From contig CALCZP010000008.1 of the NCBI GenBank assembly GCA_937903035.1, forward strand, positions 21,551 to 85,550: 64,000 nt of DNA, in the 5' to 3' direction. The stretch is from an uncultured bacterium. GTDB lineage: Bacteria > Patescibacteriota > Minisyncoccia > Phycocordibacterales > UBA9973. Positions 13,406-61,404 of this stretch are shown one piece after another (position 1 is the stretch's first letter; every line of letters starts with the position of its first letter). The position numbers and the translations under genes were made by a program. A model generated the notes under the pieces. That model searched no databases. It was not told where the DNA came from and was given only the letters and a program-made list of their open reading frames with translations.

Positions 13406-14176
13406 TTAAATATAATCAGTCTGTATTTCTTCGGGTGCGATAGTCGCAGCTTGTTTCTCAAGGCTAATATCAGCAAAGAGTTCGTCTTGCTCAGCAGCAA
13501 GAAGTCCCCGTCTTACAAGCTCTAGCATACCAAGAAATGAGACAATCGTGTAGACACGCTGACTCTTGTCATCGCCATCCGGTGACTGCACACGGAGATC
13601 ATTGAACGATAGCTTCTGCATCGCACGCTCAATCCGCTCAGTGAGTGTGACCAATACCTCAGTAATACTAATCGTCTTATAGACGCGAGCCTCGGGTTTC
13701 TTGGCCTCAGGGATAGGCATGCGCACTGCCGTCTCGTGAATGAGCCCGGGCAACATATCGACAGTGAGTTTCTCATCAGGCGCAAATACGGCTCCTGGCA
13801 TGCGACTCACGCCTTCAAATGAGACGCGCTTGCCATAGAGACGCATCATATCTCCTGATACTTGGGAAATGATCTGGTAGAGTGCCACACGACGCTCAAG
13901 ATCGGTTATCGATGCGGACTCTTCGGTCGTGAGCTCAAGATTTGGGAGCAGTGATCGCGCCTTGATGAGGATAAGTGTAGCTGCAACCGAGAGAAAGCTT
14001 GCTACCGTATCAGGATGCATGCCGCGACCTTGGATATATGCAACAAAATCATCGGTGACTGACGCCAGTGAGACAGCGTTCACAAACAGCTTTCGCTTCT
14101 CGATGAGTTCAAGCAAGACCTCAATCGGTCCTTCAAAGACTTCGTGCTTAACAATAAAAGCAGTACCATTTTCCAT
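13406..14176 (-). CDS. scpA: Segregation and condensation protein A (kleisin)
   Basis: FEGPIEVLLELIEKRKLFVNAVSLASVTDDF N-terminal ScpA motif. Confidence 0.8.
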   Translation of the reverse strand: MENGTAFIVKHEVFEGPIEVLLELIEKRKLFVNAVSLASVTDDFVAYIQGRGMHPDTVASFLSVAATLILIKARSLLPNLELTTEESASITDLERRVALYQIISQVSGDMMRLYGKRVSFEGVSRMPGAVFAPDEKLTVDMLPGLIHETAVRMPIPEAKKPEARVYKTISITEVLVTLTERIERAMQKLSFNDLRVQSPDGDDKSQRVYTIVSFLGMLELVRRGLLAAEQDELFADISLEKQAATIAPEEIQTDYI

Positions 14177-27955: not shown

Positions 27956-29824
27956 TTATATTACATCTAAAAGCGAGAGGATACTATCCTTGTCTGCTTC
28001 ATGAAGGAACAAGGTGAGTTTTGGACCAGATTCTTTTCCAAATAACAGCTGATATACGATACTAAAAAATTGTCGCTGATTGTCTTTGTTTTGTGCATCG
28101 CTCGCAGTTGCAACTTTCGGTATAGCGTACAGTGCTGTTTTAAATGAATCCGCAGAAAGACTTTCCCTGTTCTTTATAAGATCAATGAGTTGTCCAATAT
28201 TTTGTTTTTCAAAAATATCAAGCGTATTAGCCATAGCTACATTTTGAGCAGATAAAAGATACCACGAAACATCGGGCGATACAGCAATATAGCGCGACGT
28301 ATCTTGATTAAAGAGTTGTGTATCGAGATATAATTGTCCACGCTCAACGGATTCTAGTTCATTTGATTGGCTGATAGGCATACGCATAATCTTCTGCACG
28401 TTTTTTTCGTGAATATCAGAATAACGATTAAGCACAATATGCTCCCCCGCAGCAACACCTTCTATCATTGGTTTTGCAACATATTCGTATATATCTCGCT
28501 GCGGAAGGGTCGGTAAGGGAATGGTTTTGCCGCCAATACTGAGTGACGACGCACCAACTCCATATCCACCATACGGTTGGGTGCCACGCTCTACTCCTGG
28601 AATGTGAAGATGAGTATTATGCAAAAACGTATCTCGCGGATGAATAACCGTATCATTAATTTTTCTATCAATCAGATTGTGGATATATGAGCTAGATCCA
28701 TACAAGGTGATATACATTGCGTTTTCAAAATATTCTTTTGCTTCAAAATAGGACGCAAGTTCAGCATCAGTAGTATATTTTTGGACAAAAATAATCGGAG
28801 CAAATATTTCTGCGTAGTTTGCACCCAACGAAAGAGGTTTTGTAATAATAGTCGGATAAACAATACAATGACGGGTATCAATCACTCCAGGAGTCGACAT
28901 ATCGATCCATGAACTGTTATCGCAAAGAAACTCCTGGATACGAACAAGATCTTTTGTATCACTCATTGGACCAATCCGGGATGTTTGATCACTATACTCT
29001 CCTATTTTCATAGAAGAAACGGTACTGCGAAGTTGGTTCATAAAGTCCTCATATATCTCTTCGTGAACTAGAATCGCATTCGGGGCGGCACAGTCTTGTC
29101 CTTGATTATAAAATTGCAGTGTTGTAACAGCATCAATCGCTTTTTCAAGATTCGCATCAGCAGCTATTACAAGCGGATTATGTCCTGAGCCGTTAGATAT
29201 GAAAAGTGTTCGACGATCAAAGATTTGCCGAAGCTTTGATGCGTGATGCGATGTGCCCGTAAAAATAACAACATCAGTCACCGGACGTGATGCGGTGGTC
29301 ACAGGGTCAACTCTAAGCGCAGAGCGTTCAATTAAAAATTCAAGCCGTTGCTTGTCTGATACAAAAACATTTGGAAAGTATTTCTTAATCTCAAGAAGTT
29401 CAAGCATTTCTGAAAAGAATGCATGCATGGCATGCGGGATACGAAAATGCACCGCACTTGCCATAAACGATGGGATAATGACAAAGCAAGTAAATGCATA
29501 AAGTGGCTGATTGCGTGGCAAAAAAGCAGCAACCTCTCCTATTCTTAATTTAAAGTAAGCTTCATTTTCATTGAGATTACGGAGAAGATCGAAAGTTCTA
29601 CTAATTTCATCTTCAACAACTTCGTGGCTTTCATACCGCAAAAGGATTGTTTCAAGATGTTCAGTTTTAGTCTCAATAAGATCTGCGAAAGCTCTTGCGC
29701 GAGAGATTATCTCTTTTGGATCAAGTGACGAGTATGGCTGGAAATTAGAATCTGCACCATCACGAGAAGTAGTATGTTCCATAGCGTACAGTATAGCTAA
29801 TACAATAAAAAAAGAAACCTGCAA
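27956..29824 (-). CDS. Aldehyde-dehydrogenase-superfamily protein, divergent (622 aa; catalytic Cys present, general-base Glu absent; acylating/LuxC-like?)
   Basis: LFISNGSGHNPLVIAADANLEKAIDAVTTLQFYNQGQDCAAPNAILVHEEIYEDF aligns with the ALDH ELGGKSP...FxNxGQxCxA core; LELGG Glu replaced by S/N; 4-nt gap to HK. Confidence 0.55.
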   Translation of the reverse strand: MQVSFFIVLAILYAMEHTTSRDGADSNFQPYSSLDPKEIISRARAFADLIETKTEHLETILLRYESHEVVEDEISRTFDLLRNLNENEAYFKLRIGEVAAFLPRNQPLYAFTCFVIIPSFMASAVHFRIPHAMHAFFSEMLELLEIKKYFPNVFVSDKQRLEFLIERSALRVDPVTTASRPVTDVVIFTGTSHHASKLRQIFDRRTLFISNGSGHNPLVIAADANLEKAIDAVTTLQFYNQGQDCAAPNAILVHEEIYEDFMNQLRSTVSSMKIGEYSDQTSRIGPMSDTKDLVRIQEFLCDNSSWIDMSTPGVIDTRHCIVYPTIITKPLSLGANYAEIFAPIIFVQKYTTDAELASYFEAKEYFENAMYITLYGSSSYIHNLIDRKINDTVIHPRDTFLHNTHLHIPGVERGTQPYGGYGVGASSLSIGGKTIPLPTLPQRDIYEYVAKPMIEGVAAGEHIVLNRYSDIHEKNVQKIMRMPISQSNELESVERGQLYLDTQLFNQDTSRYIAVSPDVSWYLLSAQNVAMANTLDIFEKQNIGQLIDLIKNRESLSADSFKTALYAIPKVATASDAQNKDNQRQFFSIVYQLLFGKESGPKLTLFLHEADKDSILSLLDVI

Positions 29825-32083: not shown

Positions 32084-32776
32084 ATGAACATACAAAAAAA
32101 CATACTTTTATTTGACTCAGACATCCTGGACACAGATGAGGATATACATCCTATAGAACTATTGTTTGTTAGAGATATGGTGACTTTTGTACAAGATAGC
32201 AATTCATTTAAAGAGCAAATTGCAAATAAATCTTGGGACATTATTTTTATAAATTTTCAAACAAGACTATTCTTAAAGATAGAAGATGCTCAATTAGATG
32301 AATTTGTACAAATTGTTATCGCCTCTCAACCAGGTAGTTGCTGCAATGTAGCTATTACAAATGATAGAGATCAAATCTCTATGCTGAAAGAAAAAGGGTT
32401 TAGTATTTTCTCTAAAAAATATAACATTGCCAGAATTAGAGAAGAATTTAAAATCTTTCAAAAAGTTTTAACGACTAGTGATATCCAAGAATATGTAGCC
32501 GACTATCATCATATGTCAGCTACAAAACTTCTAGAGAAAACTAGGAATAGAAACATTGTAGAGCCACGACAAATAGCAATGTATCTCTCGCACCATCTGG
32601 TAACAAAAAATTTAAAAAAAGTAGCTAGTGACTTTTATTTAAAAAACCATACCAGTACTATTCATGCACTACGAACAGTTAACGATCTCATGGATACAAA
32701 TTCTGCTATAAAAGAAAAGGTTGATTTTTTATTCTACAATCTTCGAACTGGTCTATATCTAAAAGCCTCCTTGTGA
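32084..32776 (+). CDS. Atypical receiver-like domain fused to DnaA domain-IV-like HTH (230 aa), AT-rich gene
   Basis: C-terminus IVEPRQIAMYLSHHLVTKNLKKVASDFYLKNHTSTIHALRTVNDLMDTN parallels DnaA domain IV; N-terminus NILLFDSD...WDIIFINFQ...VQIVIASQ...FSIFSKK resembles REC beta-strands with Asn at the phospho-Asp position. Confidence 0.5.
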   Translation: MNIQKNILLFDSDILDTDEDIHPIELLFVRDMVTFVQDSNSFKEQIANKSWDIIFINFQTRLFLKIEDAQLDEFVQIVIASQPGSCCNVAITNDRDQISMLKEKGFSIFSKKYNIARIREEFKIFQKVLTTSDIQEYVADYHHMSATKLLEKTRNRNIVEPRQIAMYLSHHLVTKNLKKVASDFYLKNHTSTIHALRTVNDLMDTNSAIKEKVDFLFYNLRTGLYLKASL

Positions 32777-34297: not shown

Positions 34298-35584
34298 TTA
34301 GATCGGCAAGTTTGCTGGTGGCTCTGCCTTGGTAGCCTCAATACGAGTAAAGCTTGGGGTTTCTGCTACACGACCCGGTAAATGGAAAATAGTTGCAAGC
34401 TCTTCAGTAGAGAGAATGTATGGCTTGCCGCCACTTTCATTGGGGTTGGTAAAATAATCTCCAAACGAAAGTGGATCAAACCCTCCATAAAAAAATGCGC
34501 GAGCTTTGTATCCGCCAAGCAGTTTTGCTTTCATGCCGGCAATTTTATTGCCAAACATATCTTGCCATGGAAAATCTACCTTGGTAGTGCCGTCTGGCTT
34601 AAAGCCGTTGAGCTGACTTGAGTTAAACTGGCGAAATGCACCAATGAGTGCAGGCGCTCGTGTCCCCGCATTAAATGCAGGGCCCTTGGCGATATATACT
34701 GCACGGATAAACGAATCAAATCCAAACTTGTCAGCGTGCCGCTCAATTGTTTCAAATGTATTAGTTTGTGTTTTCGTTGTAAGTGTAATGATGGGCTTAC
34801 CATTCTCATCTTTTTCATAGAGATTTGCCTTGAGCTCAGTAATCGTCTCGGCAGCTTTTGCCTTCCAATCTTTCCCTTTTTCTTCAACACCTTTCTTTTT
34901 GACCGTAAAGCGTTTCGTATCGGGTCTGATCAATATCTGAATCCATACGTGCTCATTTGCATTAAGTGACCCAATATATTCAAGGAGTGGTGTGATCGGA
35001 TCAATACGTTGCTCTTCATCAAGTGATCCAATTGCTTTGTCGAGTCCATAATCAATATATGACTTGATCGGATATACATCGTCCTTTGAAAGAATAAAAT
35101 TGCACCCCCACAAGTTAAAGTCAGCTCCTTTTTTAAAATCAGGAAATTCACTCGTATAGTCTGACACTTCGAACACTTCAGCCTGAGGATACTGCGCATA
35201 AATCTGAGCCTCGACTGTCTTTTTGAATTTTTCAGGAAGACGAATATAAAAATGTACCGATCCTTCTTTTGAAACAATCTCAAGCGACGAATACAGACTT
35301 ACTTCTCCTTTCCAATACTTGGTATACCAATCACCACCCTGCCCACCTGCGTAGAGTGAGTTGAGTACAAGCTCCATTGCAAGTGGAGACTTAAAGACTT
35401 CTTTTGGTGGCTTCACTTCAATGATCACCCATTTAATGGAGCGCAAGAAGAGTGTTTGAATGTACGAAAGCCACACATTCCATGCAATGACTGCCAATAT
35501 CGGCACTGCGACAAAGATTCCTATTTCATGCATGACGTCAGCGAGCGTCAACGACTGTTCCATGTGCACTAGTATAGCAAACAC
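34298..35584 (-). CDS. Membrane-anchored hypothetical protein (428 aa)
   Basis: One N-terminal TM then large soluble domain; no motif recognised; upstream of ftsZ region. Confidence 0.5.
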   Translation of the reverse strand: MFAILVHMEQSLTLADVMHEIGIFVAVPILAVIAWNVWLSYIQTLFLRSIKWVIIEVKPPKEVFKSPLAMELVLNSLYAGGQGGDWYTKYWKGEVSLYSSLEIVSKEGSVHFYIRLPEKFKKTVEAQIYAQYPQAEVFEVSDYTSEFPDFKKGADFNLWGCNFILSKDDVYPIKSYIDYGLDKAIGSLDEEQRIDPITPLLEYIGSLNANEHVWIQILIRPDTKRFTVKKKGVEEKGKDWKAKAAETITELKANLYEKDENGKPIITLTTKTQTNTFETIERHADKFGFDSFIRAVYIAKGPAFNAGTRAPALIGAFRQFNSSQLNGFKPDGTTKVDFPWQDMFGNKIAGMKAKLLGGYKARAFFYGGFDPLSFGDYFTNPNESGGKPYILSTEELATIFHLPGRVAETPSFTRIEATKAEPPANLPI

Positions 35585-46044: not shown

Positions 46045-46054
46045 ATGAAATAAA

Positions 46055-46089
46055 AACACTCCGTTTGTAGCGGAGTGTTTTTATTTTTT
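46055..46089 (+). terminator. Rho-independent terminator after hsp20
   Basis: AACACTCCGtttgtagCGGAGTGTT + TTTATTTTTT. Confidence 0.65.
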
Positions 46090-46122
46090 GTACTCAGAAC
46101 CAGGACTCAAATGTGACACTAT
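46090..46122 (-). other. Degenerate copy of tRNA-Phe 3' end (T-arm + acceptor), about 80% identical over about 33 nt, 28 nt from the intact gene
   Basis: gtactcagaaccaggactcaaatgtgacac vs gtgctcagaaccaggctcgaactggtgaccc. Confidence 0.5.
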
Positions 46123-46150
46123 TCCCATTCAGAGGATGCAACTATTGTTG

Positions 46151-46223
46151 TGCTCAGAACCAGGCTCGAACTGGTGACCCTTCCCTCTTCAGGGGAATGC
46201 TCTACCAACTGAGCTATCTGAGC
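46151..46223 (-). tRNA. tRNA-Phe (anticodon GAA)
   Basis: Reverse complement GCTCAGATAGCTCAGTTGGTAGAGCATTCCCCTGAAGAGGGAAGGGTCACCAGTTCGAGCCTGGTTCTGAGCA; loop CTGAAGA. Confidence 0.85.
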
Positions 46224-46270
46224 AGTTGGTGGTCCCTATTTTATACACGAAAACGGCTTTTCAGGCAAGA

Positions 46271-46546
46271 TTATGAATCAGTTGTAGTACCTTTATATTG
46301 GTTGATCAAGTCTCTAAAGGTGTTTGCATCAGCACTCCCACCAAAATCGTAAACTCCTTTGAACTGGTCAAGCAATGGCTGTACAAAATAGAACGCTCCG
46401 ACTGACAGAAGGATAATAAACACCCAGTATACCGTACGAAAGATCATTGCATTACGCTGTACACGATAGAGCTTGTGCAAAATGACATTATTGTCTTCGA
46501 TTTTCGCCTCAAGCTGTACAAGTCGCTCTTCAACCTTTGGATCCAT
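46271..46546 (-). CDS. Small membrane protein (91 aa, 1 TM)
   Basis: ORF in AT-rich island. Confidence 0.4.
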   Translation of the reverse strand: MDPKVEERLVQLEAKIEDNNVILHKLYRVQRNAMIFRTVYWVFIILLSVGAFYFVQPLLDQFKGVYDFGGSADANTFRDLINQYKGTTTDS

Positions 46547-46626
46547 ATAAACAAAAGTATAGCATGAGGAATAGTTCTTAATTAAAAAACACCGAATAAT
46601 CGGTGTTTTGATTTACTAATTAGAAT

Positions 46627-47031
46627 TTATTCAGATGCAAGATTTAACCCATACATAAGCAAAGTTTCTACAACTTCGTTTATACTTTTTTCTCCAAAAG
46701 TACGGAATTTAAGAAGATCTTCCTTTGTATATTTAAGGAGTTCTTTAACAGTAACAATGCCTGCTTTTTTAAGACAGTTCATTGCTCTATTAGTTAAGTG
46801 CAATTCAGTTACGTCTGAATTAAGAATTTGTTCCTTATCTTCAATGTTTATTTTTTTCTTTGAATGTAAGAGATTATTCGGTAAAGCATAGGTAATTTCA
46901 AGCTCTTTATTAGAAGGAGTAACTACCAAACTTGTCATTATTGAACCTTTTACTATATAACCTTCTTTTTTTAGAAATTTCTCCAAATCTTTAAAATTTA
47001 GATTAATTTTTGAGGTCGTACTTATTTTCAT
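46627..47031 (-). CDS. Standalone protein with RNA polymerase alpha-subunit C-terminal-domain (alpha-CTD)-like HhH module (134 aa)
   Basis: LHLTNRAMNCLKKAGIVTVKELLKYTKEDLLKFRTFGEKSINEVVETLLMYGLNL parallels E. coli RpoA 260-320 [55 protein letters not shown]; AT-rich. Confidence 0.6.
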   Translation of the reverse strand: MKISTTSKINLNFKDLEKFLKKEGYIVKGSIMTSLVVTPSNKELEITYALPNNLLHSKKKINIEDKEQILNSDVTELHLTNRAMNCLKKAGIVTVKELLKYTKEDLLKFRTFGEKSINEVVETLLMYGLNLASE

Positions 47032-47040
47032 ATATGTAGT

Positions 47041-47091
47041 TTTAATTGTTACCAGAAACTCTTTCTTTTAGAATCTTTGGTAACAATTAAA
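47041..47091. repeat. 14-nt perfect inverted repeat TTTAATTGTTACCA / TGGTAACAATTAAA (23-nt spacer) in the 5' leader of the alpha-CTD-like gene
   Basis: Read directly; 3' arm ends 10 nt before the start codon on the minus strand. Confidence 0.7.
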
Positions 47092-47113
47092 ACTTTTAAA
47101 GAACTTATGTGAA

Positions 47114-47163
47114 TTATAATAGCATAGTATGCTTGACTTGTCAATCATACTATGCTATTATAA
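47114..47163. promoter_or_regulatory. 50-nt palindrome (18-nt perfect arms TTATAATAGCATAGTATG / CATACTATGCTATTATAA) encoding back-to-back divergent sigma-70-like promoters with overlapping -35 boxes
   Basis: Plus: TTGACT(47133-47138)-17-TATTAT(47156-47161); minus: TTGACA(47144-47139)-17-TATTAT(47121-47116). Confidence 0.45.
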
Positions 47164-47266
47164 AAGCAAGATTCGCTCTTTGAAAGATATTGTTGATTCG
47201 TCTGAGCTTCCCTGCCATAAAGAGGAGTTGAGAGGAATCAATACTATCAAATCAAAAATTATAAAG

Positions 47267-47488
47267 ATGTATCACCTAAATTTTATTCAGACAGTTCTAT
47301 CATTTGTACTAACTGTATGGATAGTATTTCTTGGATTCTCTTTCCTTATCGGAAAGAATAAAGAGTACGTAAAATGGACAAAGGACAGTCTCAAAGCGAT
47401 TTGGAAACATTGTTGGCAGCTTATTATAGGAATTATCATAGGATACTTCCTTGCTACAGAACAGGCTTTTGATCTAACAGTCCTCTAA
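47267..47488 (+). CDS. Small membrane protein (73 aa; ORF track starts at 47129 inside the palindromic promoter, so a downstream Met is preferred)
   Basis: MYHLNFIQTVLSFVLTVWIVFLGF... two TM helices. Confidence 0.35.
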   Translation: MYHLNFIQTVLSFVLTVWIVFLGFSFLIGKNKEYVKWTKDSLKAIWKHCWQLIIGIIIGYFLATEQAFDLTVL

Positions 47489-47519
47489 CACTATCCAATA
47501 GAATAGTGTTTTTTATTTT
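47487..47519 (+). terminator. Terminator after small membrane gene
   Basis: AACACTATccaatagaATAGTGTT + TTTTATTTT. Confidence 0.6.
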
Positions 47520-47520
47520 G

Positions 47521-47592
47521 TGCCCCCAGCACGAATCGAACGCACATCAATCCCTTAGGACGGGATTGTTCTATCCATTAAACTATGGGAGC
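47521..47592 (-). tRNA. tRNA-Arg (anticodon CCT)
   Basis: Reverse complement GCTCCCATAGTTTAATGGATAGAACAATCCCGTCCTAAGGGATTGATGTGCGTTCGATTCGTGCTGGGGGCA; loop GTCCTAA. Confidence 0.8.
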
Positions 47593-48380: not shown

Positions 48381-50171
48381 TTATTGCTTCATTACATTGA
48401 TAAAGACCGTATGCGGGATGTTCACGGAAGCGTGCTCCCGCATTTTCTTTTTCCCCTTCTTTTGCTTATCAAGGAGCTTGTTCTTGCGAGACACATCACC
48501 ACCGTAGAGATGCCCAATCACGTCCTTACGAAATGCCTTGAGTGTGCGTGACGCAATAATACGGCCAAAGGCTTTTGCCTGGATTTTCATTTCTACTTGC
48601 TGACGCGGTAGTAACTTCTCAAGTTTTTCAACAAATTCAATACCATCTTCTTCTGCACGACGACGTGACACGATACGGGTAAATGCTGGCACAAGCTCGT
48701 CTCCAACAACGATATCCATACGTGTGACATCAGCACTACGCATTTCGGTAATTTCATATGAAACTGAACCATAACCTGACGTAATACTTTTAAGCTCATC
48801 AAAAAAGTTGCGCATGAGCTCACGCAGCGGCATCAAACAATGAATCGTAGAACGATCATTAGCGAAATTTGCAACATCCAATACTTCAGCTTCATGCATA
48901 TAGAGAAACGGCATGAGTGTTCCCACCTGCTCAAGTGGACAAATAATATCAGCAGTCACCCATGGCTCCTCAATAGTAATCACTGTACCATCATCAGGGA
49001 ACAGGTGTGGTGAATACACAGTGATTTCTTTGTTGCCACGCACGGTCACCTGATACGTGATCGACGGCATTGTCACAATGAGCTCGAGATTAAACTCTCG
49101 ACGCAAGCGCTCTGAAATAATCTCAAGATGCAGCATGCCGAGAAAGCCACAGCGATAGCCACGCCCCAGTGCACCAGAAACTTCTTCTTCGTATGAAAAC
49201 GATGAGTCAGAGAGACGGAGCTTACCAAGTGCTAGCTTGAGATCATCAAAGTCATCCTGACTCTCCGGATAGATCGATGCCCATACCACCGGACGAGGCT
49301 GCTCATAACCACCAAGTGCAGGGAGTGGATTTTTGAAGCTCGTGATCGTATCACCCACCGCTGCAATACCTGGCTGCTTGATACCGGTGACGATATAGCC
49401 GATCGTACCTGCTACCAACTCATCAGTTGCTGTTTCGTTTGGCATGAATACACCGACTTCAAGGACGGAGAATTTTTGTTTACTTGCAGCAAACATGAGC
49501 TCATCCCCTTTCTTCACTTTACCTTGATAGAGACGTGTAAAAATGATGACCCCCTTATGATTGGAATAACTAAAGTCAAAGATGAGGCCTTGAGGACTAC
49601 TACCCATTGTTTCAATTTTTGGTGGTGGAATCCGAGAAACAATAGTATCAAGGAGCTCCTTTACCCCATCACCGGTCCGACCAGATACTGCAATAATACT
49701 CATGGGATCACAGTCCAGGAGCTCTGCAAGCTCAACCGTGACATCTTCGGCGCGAGAAAGTGGTGAGTCCACTTTAGTGATGACTGGAATAATCACAAGT
49801 CCACTCTCACGCGCAAGTGCAAGCGTGGTGAGTGTTTGTGCCTGTACACCTTGCGTTGAGTCTACGAGCAAGAGCGATCCCTCGACGGCCTTAAGTGCGC
49901 GTGAGACTTCGTATGAAAAGTCGATGTGACCTGGTGTATCAATAAGATTGAGCATATACTCCTCCCCCTCGACCTTGTGCCGCATTCTGACTGGCTGCAT
50001 TTTGATCGTAATACCACGCTCACGCTCAAGCTCCATTGAGTCGAGTACTTGATCACGCATTTTGCGCGCCTCAATGGTACCAGTGACCTCAAGCATGCGA
50101 TCTGCAAGCGTCGATTTGCCGTGGTCGATATGGGCAATAATACTGAAATTGCGGATGTTTTTGGAATCCAT
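48381..50171 (-). CDS. lepA: Elongation factor 4 (LepA); start at MDSKNIRNF
   Basis: NFSIIAHIDHGKSTLADRMLE (G1), DTPGHIDF, TKVDSP; LepA-specific C-terminal domain. Confidence 0.9.
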   Translation of the reverse strand: MDSKNIRNFSIIAHIDHGKSTLADRMLEVTGTIEARKMRDQVLDSMELERERGITIKMQPVRMRHKVEGEEYMLNLIDTPGHIDFSYEVSRALKAVEGSLLLVDSTQGVQAQTLTTLALARESGLVIIPVITKVDSPLSRAEDVTVELAELLDCDPMSIIAVSGRTGDGVKELLDTIVSRIPPPKIETMGSSPQGLIFDFSYSNHKGVIIFTRLYQGKVKKGDELMFAASKQKFSVLEVGVFMPNETATDELVAGTIGYIVTGIKQPGIAAVGDTITSFKNPLPALGGYEQPRPVVWASIYPESQDDFDDLKLALGKLRLSDSSFSYEEEVSGALGRGYRCGFLGMLHLEIISERLRREFNLELIVTMPSITYQVTVRGNKEITVYSPHLFPDDGTVITIEEPWVTADIICPLEQVGTLMPFLYMHEAEVLDVANFANDRSTIHCLMPLRELMRNFFDELKSITSGYGSVSYEITEMRSADVTRMDIVVGDELVPAFTRIVSRRRAEEDGIEFVEKLEKLLPRQQVEMKIQAKAFGRIIASRTLKAFRKDVIGHLYGGDVSRKNKLLDKQKKGKKKMREHASVNIPHTVFINVMKQ

Positions 50172-58286: not shown

Positions 58287-59246
58287 TTATTTCTTACTAT
58301 TGATCACACTCGTGACAAATTCTTTGAGACTACTTCCTACCGCATCGAGTGCTACCAAAAACGGTGAGTTGTCATGGAGGTGTGGTTGCGTATCCATTTC
58401 GATAAACCAGACCTTGCCGCGACTATCGATAATAAATTCGCTCTGTGAGTAATCCTCTGCGCCAAACATGTGATGGAGTCGCATTGCGAGTGCTGCCGCC
58501 TGCTCACGCTCACTCGGTGAGAGACTACCACCTGCAACAGCGTACTCCTCAGTACTACTGCGGATGTCATGATGGAGCACTCCACGAGCTGGAGACTTGA
58601 TTTCAACAGCAGGGAGTACGTACGTATCTTTGTTGCGGAAATTATTGATCACCCCGACTGCCGCTTCCCTTCCATAAATATATTGCTCGACAATAAAAGG
58701 CTCCTGATGCGAGACCGACTCCTCCACCATCATCGCAAGATCAAGTGCCGTGAATGCAAAATGCGTGTTGACTGACGCGCCTCCCGTGAGTGGCTTCATC
58801 ACCCATGGTGGTGCCATGTGCTGATAGATGCGTTGCGTGATCTCTGAGACACTTTCGGTGCCGTCAGGAATGACGAGGAGTGACTCGGGTGTATTGATAC
58901 CGAGTGACTTCGCAGCTTCTTTCGCAGTCTGCTTGTTAAATGCGAGTCCAGATGCGAGGGCGCCACTGCCGGTATAGGGAATACCATAGTCATCAAGGAG
59001 ACGTGAGAGCTTGCCGTCCTCACCAAACTCACCATGAAGCGCGTTCCATACGGCATCCACACTTGCAGTGGCCTTTTCCATATCGGCAGGCACACCTTTG
59101 ATGTGAAGTACACCATCTTTGTCGAGCAGCATATCAATCGCCTCAAAGCCGGCATCCATAAGTGCCTTCTGAACGTTTGCACCAGTCTTCAAAGAAAAAT
59201 GATATTCGGGACTGATCCCTCCGCGAATGATACCGATGCGTTGCAT
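58287..59246 (-). CDS. ddl: D-alanine--D-alanine ligase (ATP-grasp)
   Basis: N-terminal IGIIRGGISPEYHFSLKTG, ATP-grasp core with HGEFGEDG, C-terminal ...WFIEMDTQPHL. Confidence 0.8.
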   Translation of the reverse strand: MQRIGIIRGGISPEYHFSLKTGANVQKALMDAGFEAIDMLLDKDGVLHIKGVPADMEKATASVDAVWNALHGEFGEDGKLSRLLDDYGIPYTGSGALASGLAFNKQTAKEAAKSLGINTPESLLVIPDGTESVSEITQRIYQHMAPPWVMKPLTGGASVNTHFAFTALDLAMMVEESVSHQEPFIVEQYIYGREAAVGVINNFRNKDTYVLPAVEIKSPARGVLHHDIRSSTEEYAVAGGSLSPSEREQAAALAMRLHHMFGAEDYSQSEFIIDSRGKVWFIEMDTQPHLHDNSPFLVALDAVGSSLKEFVTSVINSKK

Positions 59247-60891: not shown

Positions 60892-61404
60892 TCAGTGATG
60901 TAATTCCTTGCGTTGGTTTTTTGCAAGTTTAAATGTTTTGATACATTTTTTGAGACCTATGGTTTGAAGGTATAGTATAAATTCTTTGGGAAGTGGCGAT
61001 GGACCTAGCCAAACGCTTCGTTGAATCATATTGTAGCCAAACTGTTTGAGATGCAAACGAAACCACTCACGCTCTGCCTTGCGATCCTCAGGAATATCAA
61101 ATATGACCAGTAGATCGTTTAGTTGATTACGTACAACCGGTCGAGAAAACAGTTCTAAACGTGTGAGTCGAGACTCCACAGCCGACCTCTTATTTCTATA
61201 CAACATAATACTATCTGTACCCTTACGCCTAATATATCCTTGCTTCTGAAGGCGATATAGTGCATTTGCAACTGATTGGGTTTTGCATGAAAAAAGAATT
61301 GGTAGACCAAGCATACTTACTGGAACACCTTTGTATCTATATTTTGGTTCGAGAAGTAATTTCAATAATTTATCTTCTATACTCAATTTACGCGATAGCA
61401 TCAT
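60892..61404 (-). CDS. PaaX-like / Cas2-fold winged-helix regulator (170 aa)
   Basis: N-terminal wHTH (ANALYRLQKQGYIRRKG); LLVIFDIPEDRKAEREWFRLHLKQFGYNMIQRSVWLGPSP resembles the PaaX middle domain and the Cas2 fold; no CRISPR array or cas1 in the window. Confidence 0.5.
   Translation of the reverse strand: MMLSRKLSIEDKLLKLLLEPKYRYKGVPVSMLGLPILFSCKTQSVANALYRLQKQGYIRRKGTDSIMLYRNKRSAVESRLTRLELFSRPVVRNQLNDLLVIFDIPEDRKAEREWFRLHLKQFGYNMIQRSVWLGPSPLPKEFILYLQTIGLKKCIKTFKLAKNQRKELHH

Follow-up and report, generated by a model that had tools for sequence, protein, structure and literature searches.

[quoted passage not shown] A 64-kb window (the whole stretch of DNA analysed here) from an uncultured Paceibacteria (Patescibacteria/CPR) bacterium encodes such a domain in a 134-aa protein, on AT-rich DNA beside a tRNA gene, and the question is what a free alpha-CTD does there: does it act as a regulator, as a nucleoid protein or as a competitor of RNA polymerase? 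The module is widely reused beyond RpoA, in single-domain phage proteins, in fusions to sigma region 4 and in arrays of up to 11 copies. The cassette described here offers an entry to that question, being a minimal and apparently recently acquired example in which the DNA-contact residues are intact and the control region is compact and symmetric. The matter has particular relevance for the Patescibacteria, for which hardly any regulators are known to us. Should the protein be no more than a local autoregulator, the locus would be ordinary accessory-gene content.

An AT-rich cassette beside tRNA-Arg

The original prediction described a 1.3-kb AT-rich island bracketed by two minus-strand tRNA genes. 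Both tRNAs, tRNA-Phe(GAA) and tRNA-Arg(CCT), were recovered, and GC and tetranucleotide profiles bore out the contrast with the flanks, GC falling to 0.25–0.32 across positions 46500–47500 compared with 0.43–0.50 on either side. The island itself is smaller than proposed. In a related locus (L006), ATGCTATACTTTTGT..ATG(orf91) comes immediately after the tRNA-Arg 3' end (...GGGGGCAC). The window has the 15-mer seen in L006 as well, but starting at position 46565 (minus strand), 954 bp after tRNA-Arg, which sets the insert at 954 bp (Table 1) and leaves the tRNA as well as the promoter of orf91 intact to the base. This segment has a GC content of 0.294 versus 0.436 for the whole window (z=-3.5), lower than in any other 954-bp segment of the 64 kb, and a tetranucleotide L1 distance of 0.62 versus a mean of 0.33 (s.d. 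0.05), the most deviant in the window. These measures support the conclusion that the 954-bp segment is compositionally foreign.

Table 1. Features of the cassette and its surroundings (window positions).
Feature	Positions	Strand	Basis or remark
tRNA-Phe 3' half, degenerate (T arm and acceptor 3' strand)	~46090-46120	-	direct repeat D9, alignment, shuffle test
tRNA-Phe(GAA)	46150-46223	-	ARAGORN and Rfam
orf91, 91 aa, one TM segment; outside insert	46271-46546 (ORF), with upstream part to 46565	-	tblastn, junction comparison, hydropathy
Inserted cassette, 954 bp, two genes	46566-47519		junction versus L006, composition, absence from relatives
Terminator-like hairpin and U-run directly after alpha-CTD gene stop	46580-46609	-	RNA fold
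134-aa protein: novel N-domain ~1-52, flexible linker ~53-62, alpha-CTD 64-134	46627-47031	-	HMM, structure model
Palindrome I2, 25-nt arms, alpha-CTD gene 5' leader	47038-47094	-	inverted repeat, 88% complementary
Near-perfect 48-bp palindrome I1 with two interlocked divergent promoters	47114-47163		inverted-repeat and promoter scan
P(-)	-35 TTGACA 47144-47139; TGnTATTAT 47121-47116		17 nt spacer
P(+)	-35 TTGACT 47133-47138; TGnTATTAT 47156-47161		17 nt spacer
Hairpin from imperfect inverted repeat I3, membrane-protein gene 5' leader	47186-47248	+	28-nt arms, 75% complementary
Orphan 73-aa ORF, two hydrophobic segments	47267-47488	+	ORF list, promoter position, hydropathy
Terminator-like hairpin and U-run after membrane-protein gene, adjoining tRNA-Arg 3' end	47487-47519	+	RNA fold
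tRNA-Arg(CCT)	47520-47592	-	ARAGORN and Rfam; 3' end is upstream insert boundary

The remainder of the interval belongs to orf91, which has its own -10 box (TGCTATACT) and a GC content of 0.41. By tblastn, 32 related loci carry a homologue of orf91 between the two tRNAs, which makes orf91 a core gene, and in the closest relatives its promoter adjoins tRNA-Arg directly. Given this conservation, the reading of the full 1.3 kb as an island was rejected. The island was thought to encode two small membrane proteins; one, a 73-aa ORF with two hydrophobic segments, is indeed inside the insert, and the other, orf91, is a resident gene.

Comparison with sibling loci agreed with the expectation that the interval would differ among relatives. 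None of the 80 related Paceibacteria loci that were fetched has either cassette gene, not even those of relatives at 81–83% LepA identity, and orf91, grx, divIC, hsp20 and prsW are syntenic in related loci that lack the cassette genes. Other genes (GGDEF, acyltransferase, methyltransferases) occupy the space between the tRNAs in 12 of the 37 relatives that have both, and the slot 3' of tRNA-Arg is, on the support of these loci, hypervariable in the clade. Within the species no presence/absence polymorphism was found: every contig with orf91 or with orf119 (the listed ORF that contains the 73-aa ORF) has the cassette at 100% identity. Across eight samples, assemblies made independently of one another (seven ENA analyses, two Logan runs) give the identical cassette, so that a chimera is ruled out, and an assembly artefact was likewise rejected because several independent assemblies span both junctions. 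Contig breaks gather around the palindromes, as is typical of de Bruijn assemblers.

The proposal of tRNA-linked integration stands as far as the variable slot 3' of tRNA-Arg is concerned, but fails on the machinery, integrase and att repeat both being absent. Only two ORFs fit into the 954 bp of the cassette and neither is recombinase-like; the longest exact match to tRNA-Arg within 46224–47519 is 8 nt (shuffle mean 8.1), and the cassette has no terminal repeats. Compared with known tRNA-linked islands and prophage remnants, the cassette is alike in its tRNA 3' site, deviant composition, absence from relatives and slot of variable cargo, but differs in lacking an integrase, a tRNA 3' repeat and terminal repeats, and in comprising 954 bp only. 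An integrase-type island at either tRNA was rejected on these grounds, the degenerate tRNA-Phe copy lying outside the interval. That copy, a 3' half predicted just beyond tRNA-Phe, is real. It retains 18 of 20 core bases (90%) and lies 30 nt past the tRNA 3' end; its ungapped score was reached by 2 of 500 shuffles, and allowing a 1-nt gap betters the match. The tRNA-Phe to hsp20 spacing is 35 nt in one relative (L005) versus 105 nt here. The pseudo-half, a scar that lies beyond tRNA-Phe as seen from the insert, has no relation to the cassette.

The alpha-CTD protein and its family

The C-terminal part of the 134-aa protein, predicted to be alpha-CTD-like, proved to be so by both profile and structure. 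It matches PF03118 (RNA_pol_A_CTD) with 73.9 bits against a gathering cut-off of 23.8 (E=8.3e-21) over residues 64–124, corresponding to profile positions 5–65 of 67. The structure model has the compact helical alpha-CTD fold with two helix-hairpin-helix motifs and superposes with the Bacillus subtilis alpha-CTD at 0.8 Å. All PDB sequence matches are RpoA CTDs, and identity to real RpoA CTDs is 44–49%. The six residues by which the Escherichia coli alpha-CTD touches the minor groove of AT-rich UP-element DNA (R265, N268, C269, G296, K298 and S299) are all identical in the window protein; the numbering of the E. coli sequence used for this comparison was checked and puts each of the six in its correct place.

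The similarity to RpoA is confined to this domain. The RpoA equivalog model TIGR02027 scores 67 bits against a cut-off of 227.8 and aligns at profile positions 222–297 only, Pfam gives no alpha N-terminal domain (alpha-NTD; PF01193/PF01000) in residues 1–60, and in hhalign against a fragment of RpoA nothing but the CTD aligns. By domain content, a protein that lacks the alpha-NTD cannot take part in RNA polymerase assembly: it can neither dimerise as alpha does nor bind beta/beta'. Thus the protein has the CTD in common with RpoA, but the alpha-NTD is replaced by a novel N-domain of ~55 aa, and the gene sits on foreign DNA, unlike rpoA, which is encoded in a ribosomal-protein/rpoA operon. A split or truncated rpoA was rejected, as the similarity to RpoA does not continue past the linker and nothing in RpoA corresponds to the N-domain. 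Foldseek alignments to full-length RpoA cover 113–135 columns at an r.m.s.d. of 14–29 Å and are not meaningful. The N-domain was modelled with moderate confidence (pLDDT 64–74), and structure searches with the model returned no match apart from the CTD, which makes self-association by this domain a guess. The missing alpha-NTD and the six conserved contact residues together suggest a free DNA-binding protein for A/T-rich DNA.

The same domain content bears on a decoy acting at the level of proteins, an idea of the original prediction. Here the free alpha-CTD would titrate activators, sigma region 4, NusA/Spx-like factors or other proteins that dock on the alpha-CTD of RNAP, or compete with RNAP for them, and so reprogramme host transcription without specific DNA. 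A fold nearly identical to that of the RpoA alpha-CTD and the level of identity to real CTDs speak for it, as does the lack of the alpha-NTD that would let the protein join RNAP. However, in contrast to the DNA-contact residues, neither of the partner surfaces known from E. coli is kept, the sigma4 surface (D259, E261) reading E and H in the window protein and the CAP surface (E286, V287, G315, R317) reading K, E, A and E. Because these surfaces are lineage-specific, their loss is a weak argument against a decoy; we also know of few activators in Patescibacteria, which counts in the same direction. A decoy role is, in our view, unlikely.

The layout of N-domain, linker and alpha-CTD occurs in about 8 clusters among 5.8 billion proteins: that of the window protein itself, P0116 and P0152–P0156, which a word-index search gave, and P0271. 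The window protein is 27–35% identical to P0116 and P0152–P0156 across all 134 residues, and an exhaustive search gave E=4e-16 for P0116. The family alignment spans an N-terminal motif (MKI.TT...DLEK) and a linker motif (EDKE.(F/I)L), with invariant or near-invariant columns in both domains. Ratios of dN/dS are 0.09–0.23 for the family and 0.09 for the N-domain alone, and by these ratios the family is under purifying selection. Antisense ORFs are conserved over the family genes as a trivial consequence of sense-strand conservation. The chromosomal neighbourhood differs for each member and holds no partner gene conserved across the family. Each gene is accompanied by its own conserved promoter and leader, and in every host its GC content is discordant with the flanks. 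Among relatives, P0156 has Gly at the R265 equivalent and Asn at S299, and P0002, which combines a coiled-coil N-terminus with an alpha-CTD, has Thr at K298, indicating that DNA binding is not invariant.

The rarity of the family bears on whether the protein could be a trans-acting substitute alpha-CTD for a host RpoA whose own CTD is missing or degenerate. The host rpoA is not within the 64-kb window. An rpoA gene with its CTD is a standard bacterial marker, which argues against a substitute, and so do the extreme rarity of the family, its absence from all close relatives, the location of the gene on DNA that appears recently acquired and the lack of an alpha-NTD-binding element. We hold this explanation to be highly improbable.

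A scan of metagenome contigs with the family alignment returned 80 matches to the CTD only (44 of them starting at residue 65–68) and no full-length member, and no full-length relatives were found in IMG/VR or among GenBank phages. A phage origin by sequence was rejected, the IMG/VR matches being restricted to the CTD and located in unrelated larger proteins. Matches in GenBank phages are mostly unannotated records that align in the alpha-CTD region alone; the few with annotation are either rpoA genes of bacterial records under a wrong label or a gene for 'RNA polymerase subunit alpha' from a Bacillus phage.

Outside RpoA the alpha-CTD itself is common, with 7783 representative proteins at E<=1e-3. 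It is found fused to the sigma70 region 4 HTH, to a helicase and to itself (up to 11 repeats), and phage contigs encode sigma4-like plus alpha-CTD proteins. Such multi-domain proteins (sigma70 region 4 fusions, tandem arrays, TPR with two alpha-CTDs) share the module with the window protein, but they comprise 200–2000 aa with 2–11 CTDs or extra DNA-binding domains, in contrast to its single CTD and family-specific N-domain. Small phage alpha-CTD proteins (111–139 aa), such as A0A6J5MNY7 and A0A6J5L490 of uncultured Caudovirales and those of Rhodococcus phage Finch and Mycobacterium phage Mithril, resemble it in size and in having a short N-terminal part and one alpha-CTD. They are 17–40% identical to it, mostly in the CTD, and are likewise uncharacterised; alpha-CTD proteins of phages in BFVD match it with Foldseek E values of 3e-5 to 4e-4. 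A literature search for stand-alone alpha-CTD proteins found no relevant study, experiment or binding data. The stand-alone alpha-CTD protein is a rare but real, uncharacterised type and not a new kind of system.

The control region and the membrane ORF

The symmetric promoter architecture that had been predicted within the island is real and resides in two palindromes, I1 and I2. The arms of I1 are 24 nt long and 96% complementary, and its divergent promoters score 11/12 and 10/12 in a promoter scan, both with an extended -10 (TG). The -35 element of each lies within the spacer of the other, so that one RNA polymerase at a time should fit. The palindromic control region is uniformly AT-rich, and 'UP-like' sequence there is consequently not distinctive. 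Rfam searches of the palindromes gave sub-threshold chance matches only.

Each arm of I2 carries one copy of TAACAATTAAAACT, the 3' arm finishing 6 nt before the ATG of the alpha-CTD gene. As RNA it is predicted to form a hairpin of -26.8 kcal/mol (z=-6.8; 0 of 200 shuffles as stable). Both exact copies of the 14-mer in the whole 64 kb are those in I2, so that a regulon is not indicated. A leader motif related to TAACAATTAAAACT is conserved before family members, and the exact 14-mer precedes the P0002 gene. The family pattern of promoter and leader is TTGACTTTT..TGCAATATAAT..AAAAACATTAAAAT..ATG; compared with it, the window gene keeps the leader motif but has its promoter ~60 nt further upstream and an extra, inverted motif copy. 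In one locus (L002) the conserved motif is intercistronic, a position more in keeping with a translation signal at the RNA level than with an operator in the DNA. The leader of the membrane-protein gene also folds (-30.7 kcal/mol, z=-3.7). Downstream of the alpha-CTD gene, a hairpin of -15.3 kcal/mol (z=-5.7) with the stem AAAACACCGA/UCGGUGUUUU precedes UUUUUU, and the hairpin after the membrane-protein gene (-6.6 kcal/mol, z=-2.7) has the stem AACACUAU/AUAGUGUU followed by UUUUUAUUUU. As judged from these predicted elements the cassette is self-contained, with one hairpin-containing leader, one gene and one terminator per promoter.

On the plus strand, orf119 spans 47129–47488 (119 aa). The start of transcription from P(+) is expected near 47168, and codons 1–46 fall on the promoter or ahead of it, which makes Met47 (47267) the likely start of a 73-aa product. 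Its Kyte–Doolittle peaks fall at residues ~5–27 and ~45–65, read as two transmembrane segments. Among 5.8 billion proteins only identical copies were found, and Pfam, NCBIfam, PHROG and PADLOC gave no match; with no homologues, this ORF is itself a putative gene.

A hydrophobic ORF opposite a putative DNA-binding protein brings to mind a module for addiction or phage exclusion that stems from a phage or an island. The 73-aa protein would damage membranes as a toxin- or holin-like effector, the alpha-CTD protein would control its transcription, and the mutually exclusive palindromic promoters would be the switch. Interlocked divergent promoters with structured leaders do resemble a switch, the effector candidate is a small hydrophobic orphan on foreign AT-rich DNA adjoining a tRNA, and uncultured tailed phages commonly encode small alpha-CTD proteins. 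However, a comparable membrane-protein partner is missing in all other family members, the membrane ORF may not be a gene at all, and full-length relatives were not found in IMG/VR. PADLOC, PHROG and Pfam add nothing beyond the alpha-CTD domain: there were no PHROG matches at E<0.01 for either cassette protein, and in PADLOC, the search for toxin–antitoxin or defence genes yielded no more for the alpha-CTD protein than a weak, local similarity to PglW of the HhH type (20.6 bits). We give such a module a small chance.

The cassette could also be an inert relic of a prophage or island that has decayed to its final 1 kb, fixed by drift and currently functionless. It is without mobility genes or att repeats, the nearby tRNA-Phe pseudo-half marks events of integration and deletion in the neighbourhood, and the 25-bp leader hairpin occludes the region just 5' of the start codon, by which translation might be silenced. 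A relic is nevertheless hard to reconcile with two intact ORFs, each with a near-consensus promoter and a terminator, with purifying selection in the family, with a sequence that is identical in every assembly of the species and with an insertion that keeps its borders base-exact. We regard it as quite improbable.

Proposed role of the free alpha-CTD protein

On balance, we lean towards a horizontally acquired two-gene cassette whose alpha-CTD protein acts as a free binder of A/T-rich DNA, either a small regulator or a nucleoid-associated protein. That an AT-rich two-gene cassette is inserted beside a tRNA gene is established by the junction; we propose that it was acquired horizontally between the tRNA-Arg(CCT) 3' end and the orf91 promoter. 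The palindromic promoter pair would then be used in one direction at a time, towards either the 73-aa ORF or the alpha-CTD gene. The alpha-CTD protein would bind the minor groove of AT-rich DNA, with its own palindromic control region as the predicted target and, perhaps, UP-like sequences at other places too, and the N-domain may supply self-association.

H-NS, MvaT, Lsr2 and Rok are H-NS-type xenogeneic silencers with horizontally acquired homologues (PMC7074111). The window protein would parallel their layout within a comparable ~135 aa, with a putative association domain at the N-terminus, a flexible linker and a C-terminal domain predicted to bind the minor groove of AT-rich DNA, and its gene likewise appears to sit on AT-rich acquired DNA. 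In fold and sequence, however, the silencers are unrelated to it. By analogy, proteins with an N-domain and an alpha-CTD might be a Patescibacterial (and phage) counterpart of H-NS that self-associates and either silences foreign DNA or competes with RNA polymerase for UP-like DNA, here perhaps also setting the direction of a bistable promoter pair; this reading as a whole we consider doubtful.

Locus and boundaries of the inserted cassette

The low-GC interval originally described between two minus-strand tRNA genes was confirmed by ARAGORN and Rfam positions and by the GC profile, which falls to 0.25-0.32 at ~46500-47500 versus 0.43-0.50 in both flanks. The adjoining lepA gene has its closest relatives in Paceibacteria/Patescibacteria MAGs (L005 and L006, with LepA identities of 83% and 81%), and related genomes keep the gene order lepA, divIC, glutaredoxin, tRNA-Arg(CCT), a small membrane protein, tRNA-Phe(GAA) and, on the opposite strand, hsp20 and prsW. 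Homologues of orf91 lie between tRNA-Arg and tRNA-Phe in 32 related loci (for example, L005 12742-12969 and L006 12698-12895). The family (80-105 aa, with a charged N-terminal helix and one transmembrane segment) is conserved across the clade, has no Pfam or NCBIfam match and, judged from its sequence relatives, is a resident core gene and not cargo. None of the 80 related loci has a counterpart of either the 134-aa or the 119-aa ORF. Comparison with sibling genomes, proposed originally as a check on the island, therefore upheld it for these two ORFs but not for orf91; of the two small membrane proteins assigned to it, the orf119 product is inserted whereas that of orf91 is resident.

The tRNA-Arg end of L006, ...GGGGGCAC, runs straight into ATGCTATACTTTTGT..ATG, the -10 box and start codon of its orf91 homologue. 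The same 15-mer begins 954 bp beyond tRNA-Arg in the window, and the insert is therefore 46566-47519, shorter than the ~1.3 kb first proposed. Insertion left tRNA-Arg and the orf91 promoter intact to the base. The expected compositional contrast was also found: no other 954-bp window of the 64 kb has a GC as low as that of the cassette (0.294, z=-3.5), which is also the most tetranucleotide-deviant segment (0.62 versus a mean of 0.33, s.d. 0.05). An assembly artefact was ruled out, since the cassette recurs at 100% identity in contigs of eight samples, drawn from seven ENA analyses and two Logan runs, and several of these contigs cross both junctions. Many assemblies break near the cassette palindromes. 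Contig ends of L096, L097, L098, L099, L101 and L103, from independent metagenome assemblies of the same species, fall in window 46791-47114, and L101, a contig of 545 nt, stops precisely at 47519, where the cassette meets tRNA-Arg.

The 954-bp cassette contains no integrase or transposase. The tRNA-Arg 3' end is not repeated in it (exact matches reach at most 8 nt, equal to the shuffle mean), and terminal repeats are absent apart from similar terminator stems. The tRNA-Arg/tRNA-Phe interval exceeds 600 bp in 12 of the 37 related loci having both tRNAs. Those 12 carry unrelated cargo (a GGDEF protein, an acyltransferase, SAM methyltransferases and once a 6.5-kb block), and orf91 always adjoins tRNA-Phe in them. 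The slot between tRNA-Arg(CCT) and orf91 is a recurrent variable site in Paceibacteria, with recombinase genes not visible. Since it varies across the clade, the earlier term 'hot spot' is a fair description, though the mechanism is not visible. The degenerate 3'-half copy reported just beyond tRNA-Phe lies at ~46090-46120, past its 3' end on the hsp20 side, and is a separate scar unrelated to the cassette. The hsp20/tRNA-Phe spacer (46045-46149; 105 nt versus 35 nt in L005) holds this pseudo-3' half and a bidirectional terminator hairpin (46048-46086; perfect, 16-bp arms, -23 kcal/mol).

Features of the tRNA-Arg/tRNA-Phe locus and comparison sites
Feature	Position	Strand	Remarks
tRNA-Phe(GAA)	46150-46223	-	ARAGORN and Rfam
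orf91	46271-46546	-	91 aa; ORF list; between the two tRNAs
Alpha-CTD protein gene	46627-47031	-	134 aa; ORF list; between the two tRNAs
Leader hairpin of alpha-CTD gene	47038-47094	-	25 bp; -26.8 kcal/mol, z=-6.8
Near-perfect 48-bp palindrome	47114-47163		24-nt arms, 96% complementary; two divergent promoters
Minus-strand promoter	in 47114-47163	-	TTGACA, 17 nt, TGnTATTAT; 11/12 match
Plus-strand promoter	in 47114-47163	+	TTGACT, 17 nt, TGnTATTAT; 10/12 match
orf119	47129-47488	+	119 aa; ORF list; between the two tRNAs
tRNA-Arg(CCT)	47520-47592	-	ARAGORN and Rfam
Genes with -10 box, no Shine-Dalgarno (examples)	34298-35563, 27956-29782, 13406-14176, 58287-59246, 48381-50171	-	
Other cargo between tRNA-Arg(CCT) and orf91	L030 19182-20249; L036 12704-14140; L040 9615-11297		
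Further loci with other cargo in the slot	L052 13281-16192; L071 14209-20726; L014 13015-14464		

Promoters and leaders of the cassette genes

The highly symmetric promoter architecture of the original prediction resides in the tabulated palindrome. The -35 hexamers of its promoters meet at the centre, each within the spacer of the opposite promoter, and simultaneous occupancy by two polymerases is therefore unlikely from the geometry. On the leftward transcript, the leader is ~78 nt long and contains a hairpin whose 3' arm stops 6 nt upstream of the alpha-CTD gene ATG, and the gene ends in a predicted hairpin and U-run terminator. The rightward leader forms an imperfect hairpin (z=-3.7). Because the listed 119-aa ORF begins inside the promoter, its likely start is Met47 at 47267, giving a 73-aa protein with two hydrophobic segments; this ORF is followed by its own predicted terminator, abutting tRNA-Arg. 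The 73-aa protein is an orphan, with only identical copies among 5.8 billion proteins and no match in any family library searched.

Many genes throughout the window have a -10-like box (TATACT, TATAAT or TACAAT) ending 7-12 nt before the ATG and lack a Shine-Dalgarno sequence, and internal operon genes have TAA-N3-ATG junctions. The host genome appears to depend on leaderless messages and on translational coupling, so that the cassette genes stand out by their long, structured leaders.

The alpha-CTD protein family

The proposed resemblance of the C-terminal part of the 134-aa protein to the RNAP alpha-CTD was borne out, with RpoA-like sequence restricted to the CTD and the linker end. As the alpha-NTD is absent, the protein cannot be an RNAP subunit. 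Neither sequence nor structure gives a match for its N-domain, modelled with a helix (13-23) and two strands (34-39 and 44-49; pLDDT 64-74). An exhaustive HMMER search, counting cluster representatives at E<=1e-3, returned 7783 proteins matching the alpha-CTD, the majority of which are not RpoA; most of the best 150 have more than one repeat. Arrangements outside RpoA include tandem arrays of up to 11 repeats (P0003, 1031 aa), TPR with two repeats (P0092, P0057, P0146 and P0067), a ResIII helicase with four (P0014) and fusions to sigma70 region 4, and these sequences indicate that the domain is widely reused. Two large IMG/VR phage contigs (L104 3251-4174 and L105 3368-4366, both +) encode ~310-330-aa proteins with a sigma70-region-4-like HTH and a C-terminal alpha-CTD; P0038, P0041 and P0011 belong to the same group of fusions, and cellular proteins join sigma region 4 to 3-4 alpha-CTD repeats. 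Such fusions unite two RNAP parts that are adjacent on UP/-35 DNA.

The full 134-aa layout is common to only a handful of proteins of 118-151 aa, namely P0116 and P0152-P0156, from a word-index search, and P0271. All have an N-terminal MKI.TT...DLEK, a linker with EDKE.(F/I)L and the CTD; with 27-35% identity, the window protein diverges furthest within the family. Values of dN/dS among members, from unsaturated synonymous sites, are 0.09-0.23, and 0.09 for the N-domain alone, hence both domains are under purifying selection. That the cassette is an inert relic is unlikely given this selection on the family, the intact signals and the base-precise sparing of the neighbours.

Family members occupy ordinary chromosomal neighbourhoods, all different (gatCA/ABC transporter, NUDIX/YkuD/kinase, dnaA-dnaN/PBP and RmuC), with no partner gene common to them, and the GC of the member gene is discordant with its flanks in either direction. 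Such a pattern characterises small accessory genes that move between genomes. An addiction or exclusion module pairing a membrane effector with a regulator would fit the switch-like promoters and the occurrence in phages of small alpha-CTD proteins, similar in size to the window protein; however, it is without family support, and the partner is not conserved. A 155-aa ORF directly 3' of P0156 (L092 3634-4101, +) has a sub-threshold half-match to the alpha-CTD (E=0.002, 18 bits) and may be a degenerate tandem paralogue.

Four members have a common promoter and short leader, TTGACTTTT..TGCAATATAAT..AAAAACATTAAAAT..ATG, in which conservation starts exactly at the -35. In the window gene the leader motif TAACAATTAAAACT is retained with unchanged spacing to the ATG, and a second, inverted copy has been gained that creates the hairpin. 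These two, both in the leader palindrome, are the only exact copies in the 64 kb, which thus has no regulon-like recurrence. The exact 14-mer also lies ~10 nt before the start codon of the gene for P0002 (L002 407-434; L003 and L004), within an intercistronic gap of 20 nt; P0002 has a coiled-coil N-terminus and, apart from its alpha-CTD, is a different protein. The motif would be either an operator or a non-Shine-Dalgarno translation signal.

Proposed function of the alpha-CTD protein

In the E. coli alpha-CTD, the six residues of the '265 determinant' make minor-groove contacts with A/T-rich UP-element DNA. All six are identical in the window protein, by comparison with an E. coli RpoA reference whose numbering was verified for R265, N268, C269, G296, K298 and S299. 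The R265 equivalent is missing in one family member. The window protein does not conserve the positions that contact sigma (259/261) or CAP (286/287/315/317). A DNA-binding role outside RpoA is also supported by the repeated fusion of the module to other DNA-binding modules, such as the sigma region 4 HTH, among them the fusions of phage contigs L104 and L105; a literature search found no experimental work on stand-alone alpha-CTD proteins. The best-supported reading of the sequence is that the protein would bind AT-rich DNA in free form, as a small regulator or nucleoid-associated protein, and we propose that its target is probably its own control region, which is AT-rich and palindromic. The conservation pattern does not favour a protein-level decoy for RNAP partners, though this is possible, and trans-acting replacement of a missing RpoA CTD is very unlikely for so rare a family.

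By analogy, the layout of the proposed binder (a small N-domain, a flexible linker, an AT minor-groove binder and foreign AT-rich DNA) resembles that of H-NS-type silencers and of their homologues acquired by horizontal transfer (reviewed in PMC7074111). The domain itself is already known, and databases label such proteins 'alpha C-terminal domain-containing'. Neither cassette nor protein demands a new category; the protein adds a new, divergent member to a recognisable, though uncharacterised, kind and lies in a recently acquired mini-cassette that would be a useful minimal model for the role of free alpha-CTD proteins.

A second stand-alone DNA-binding domain from core machinery occurs in the window in another low-GC patch (~31.9-33.0 kb, GC 0.33), where a 230-aa protein (32084-32776, +) has DnaA domain IV as its sole recognisable domain (Bac_DnaA_C, E=1e-18). 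A further lower-GC stretch encodes a 170-aa protein with a PaaX_M/Cas2-like domain (60892-61404, -).
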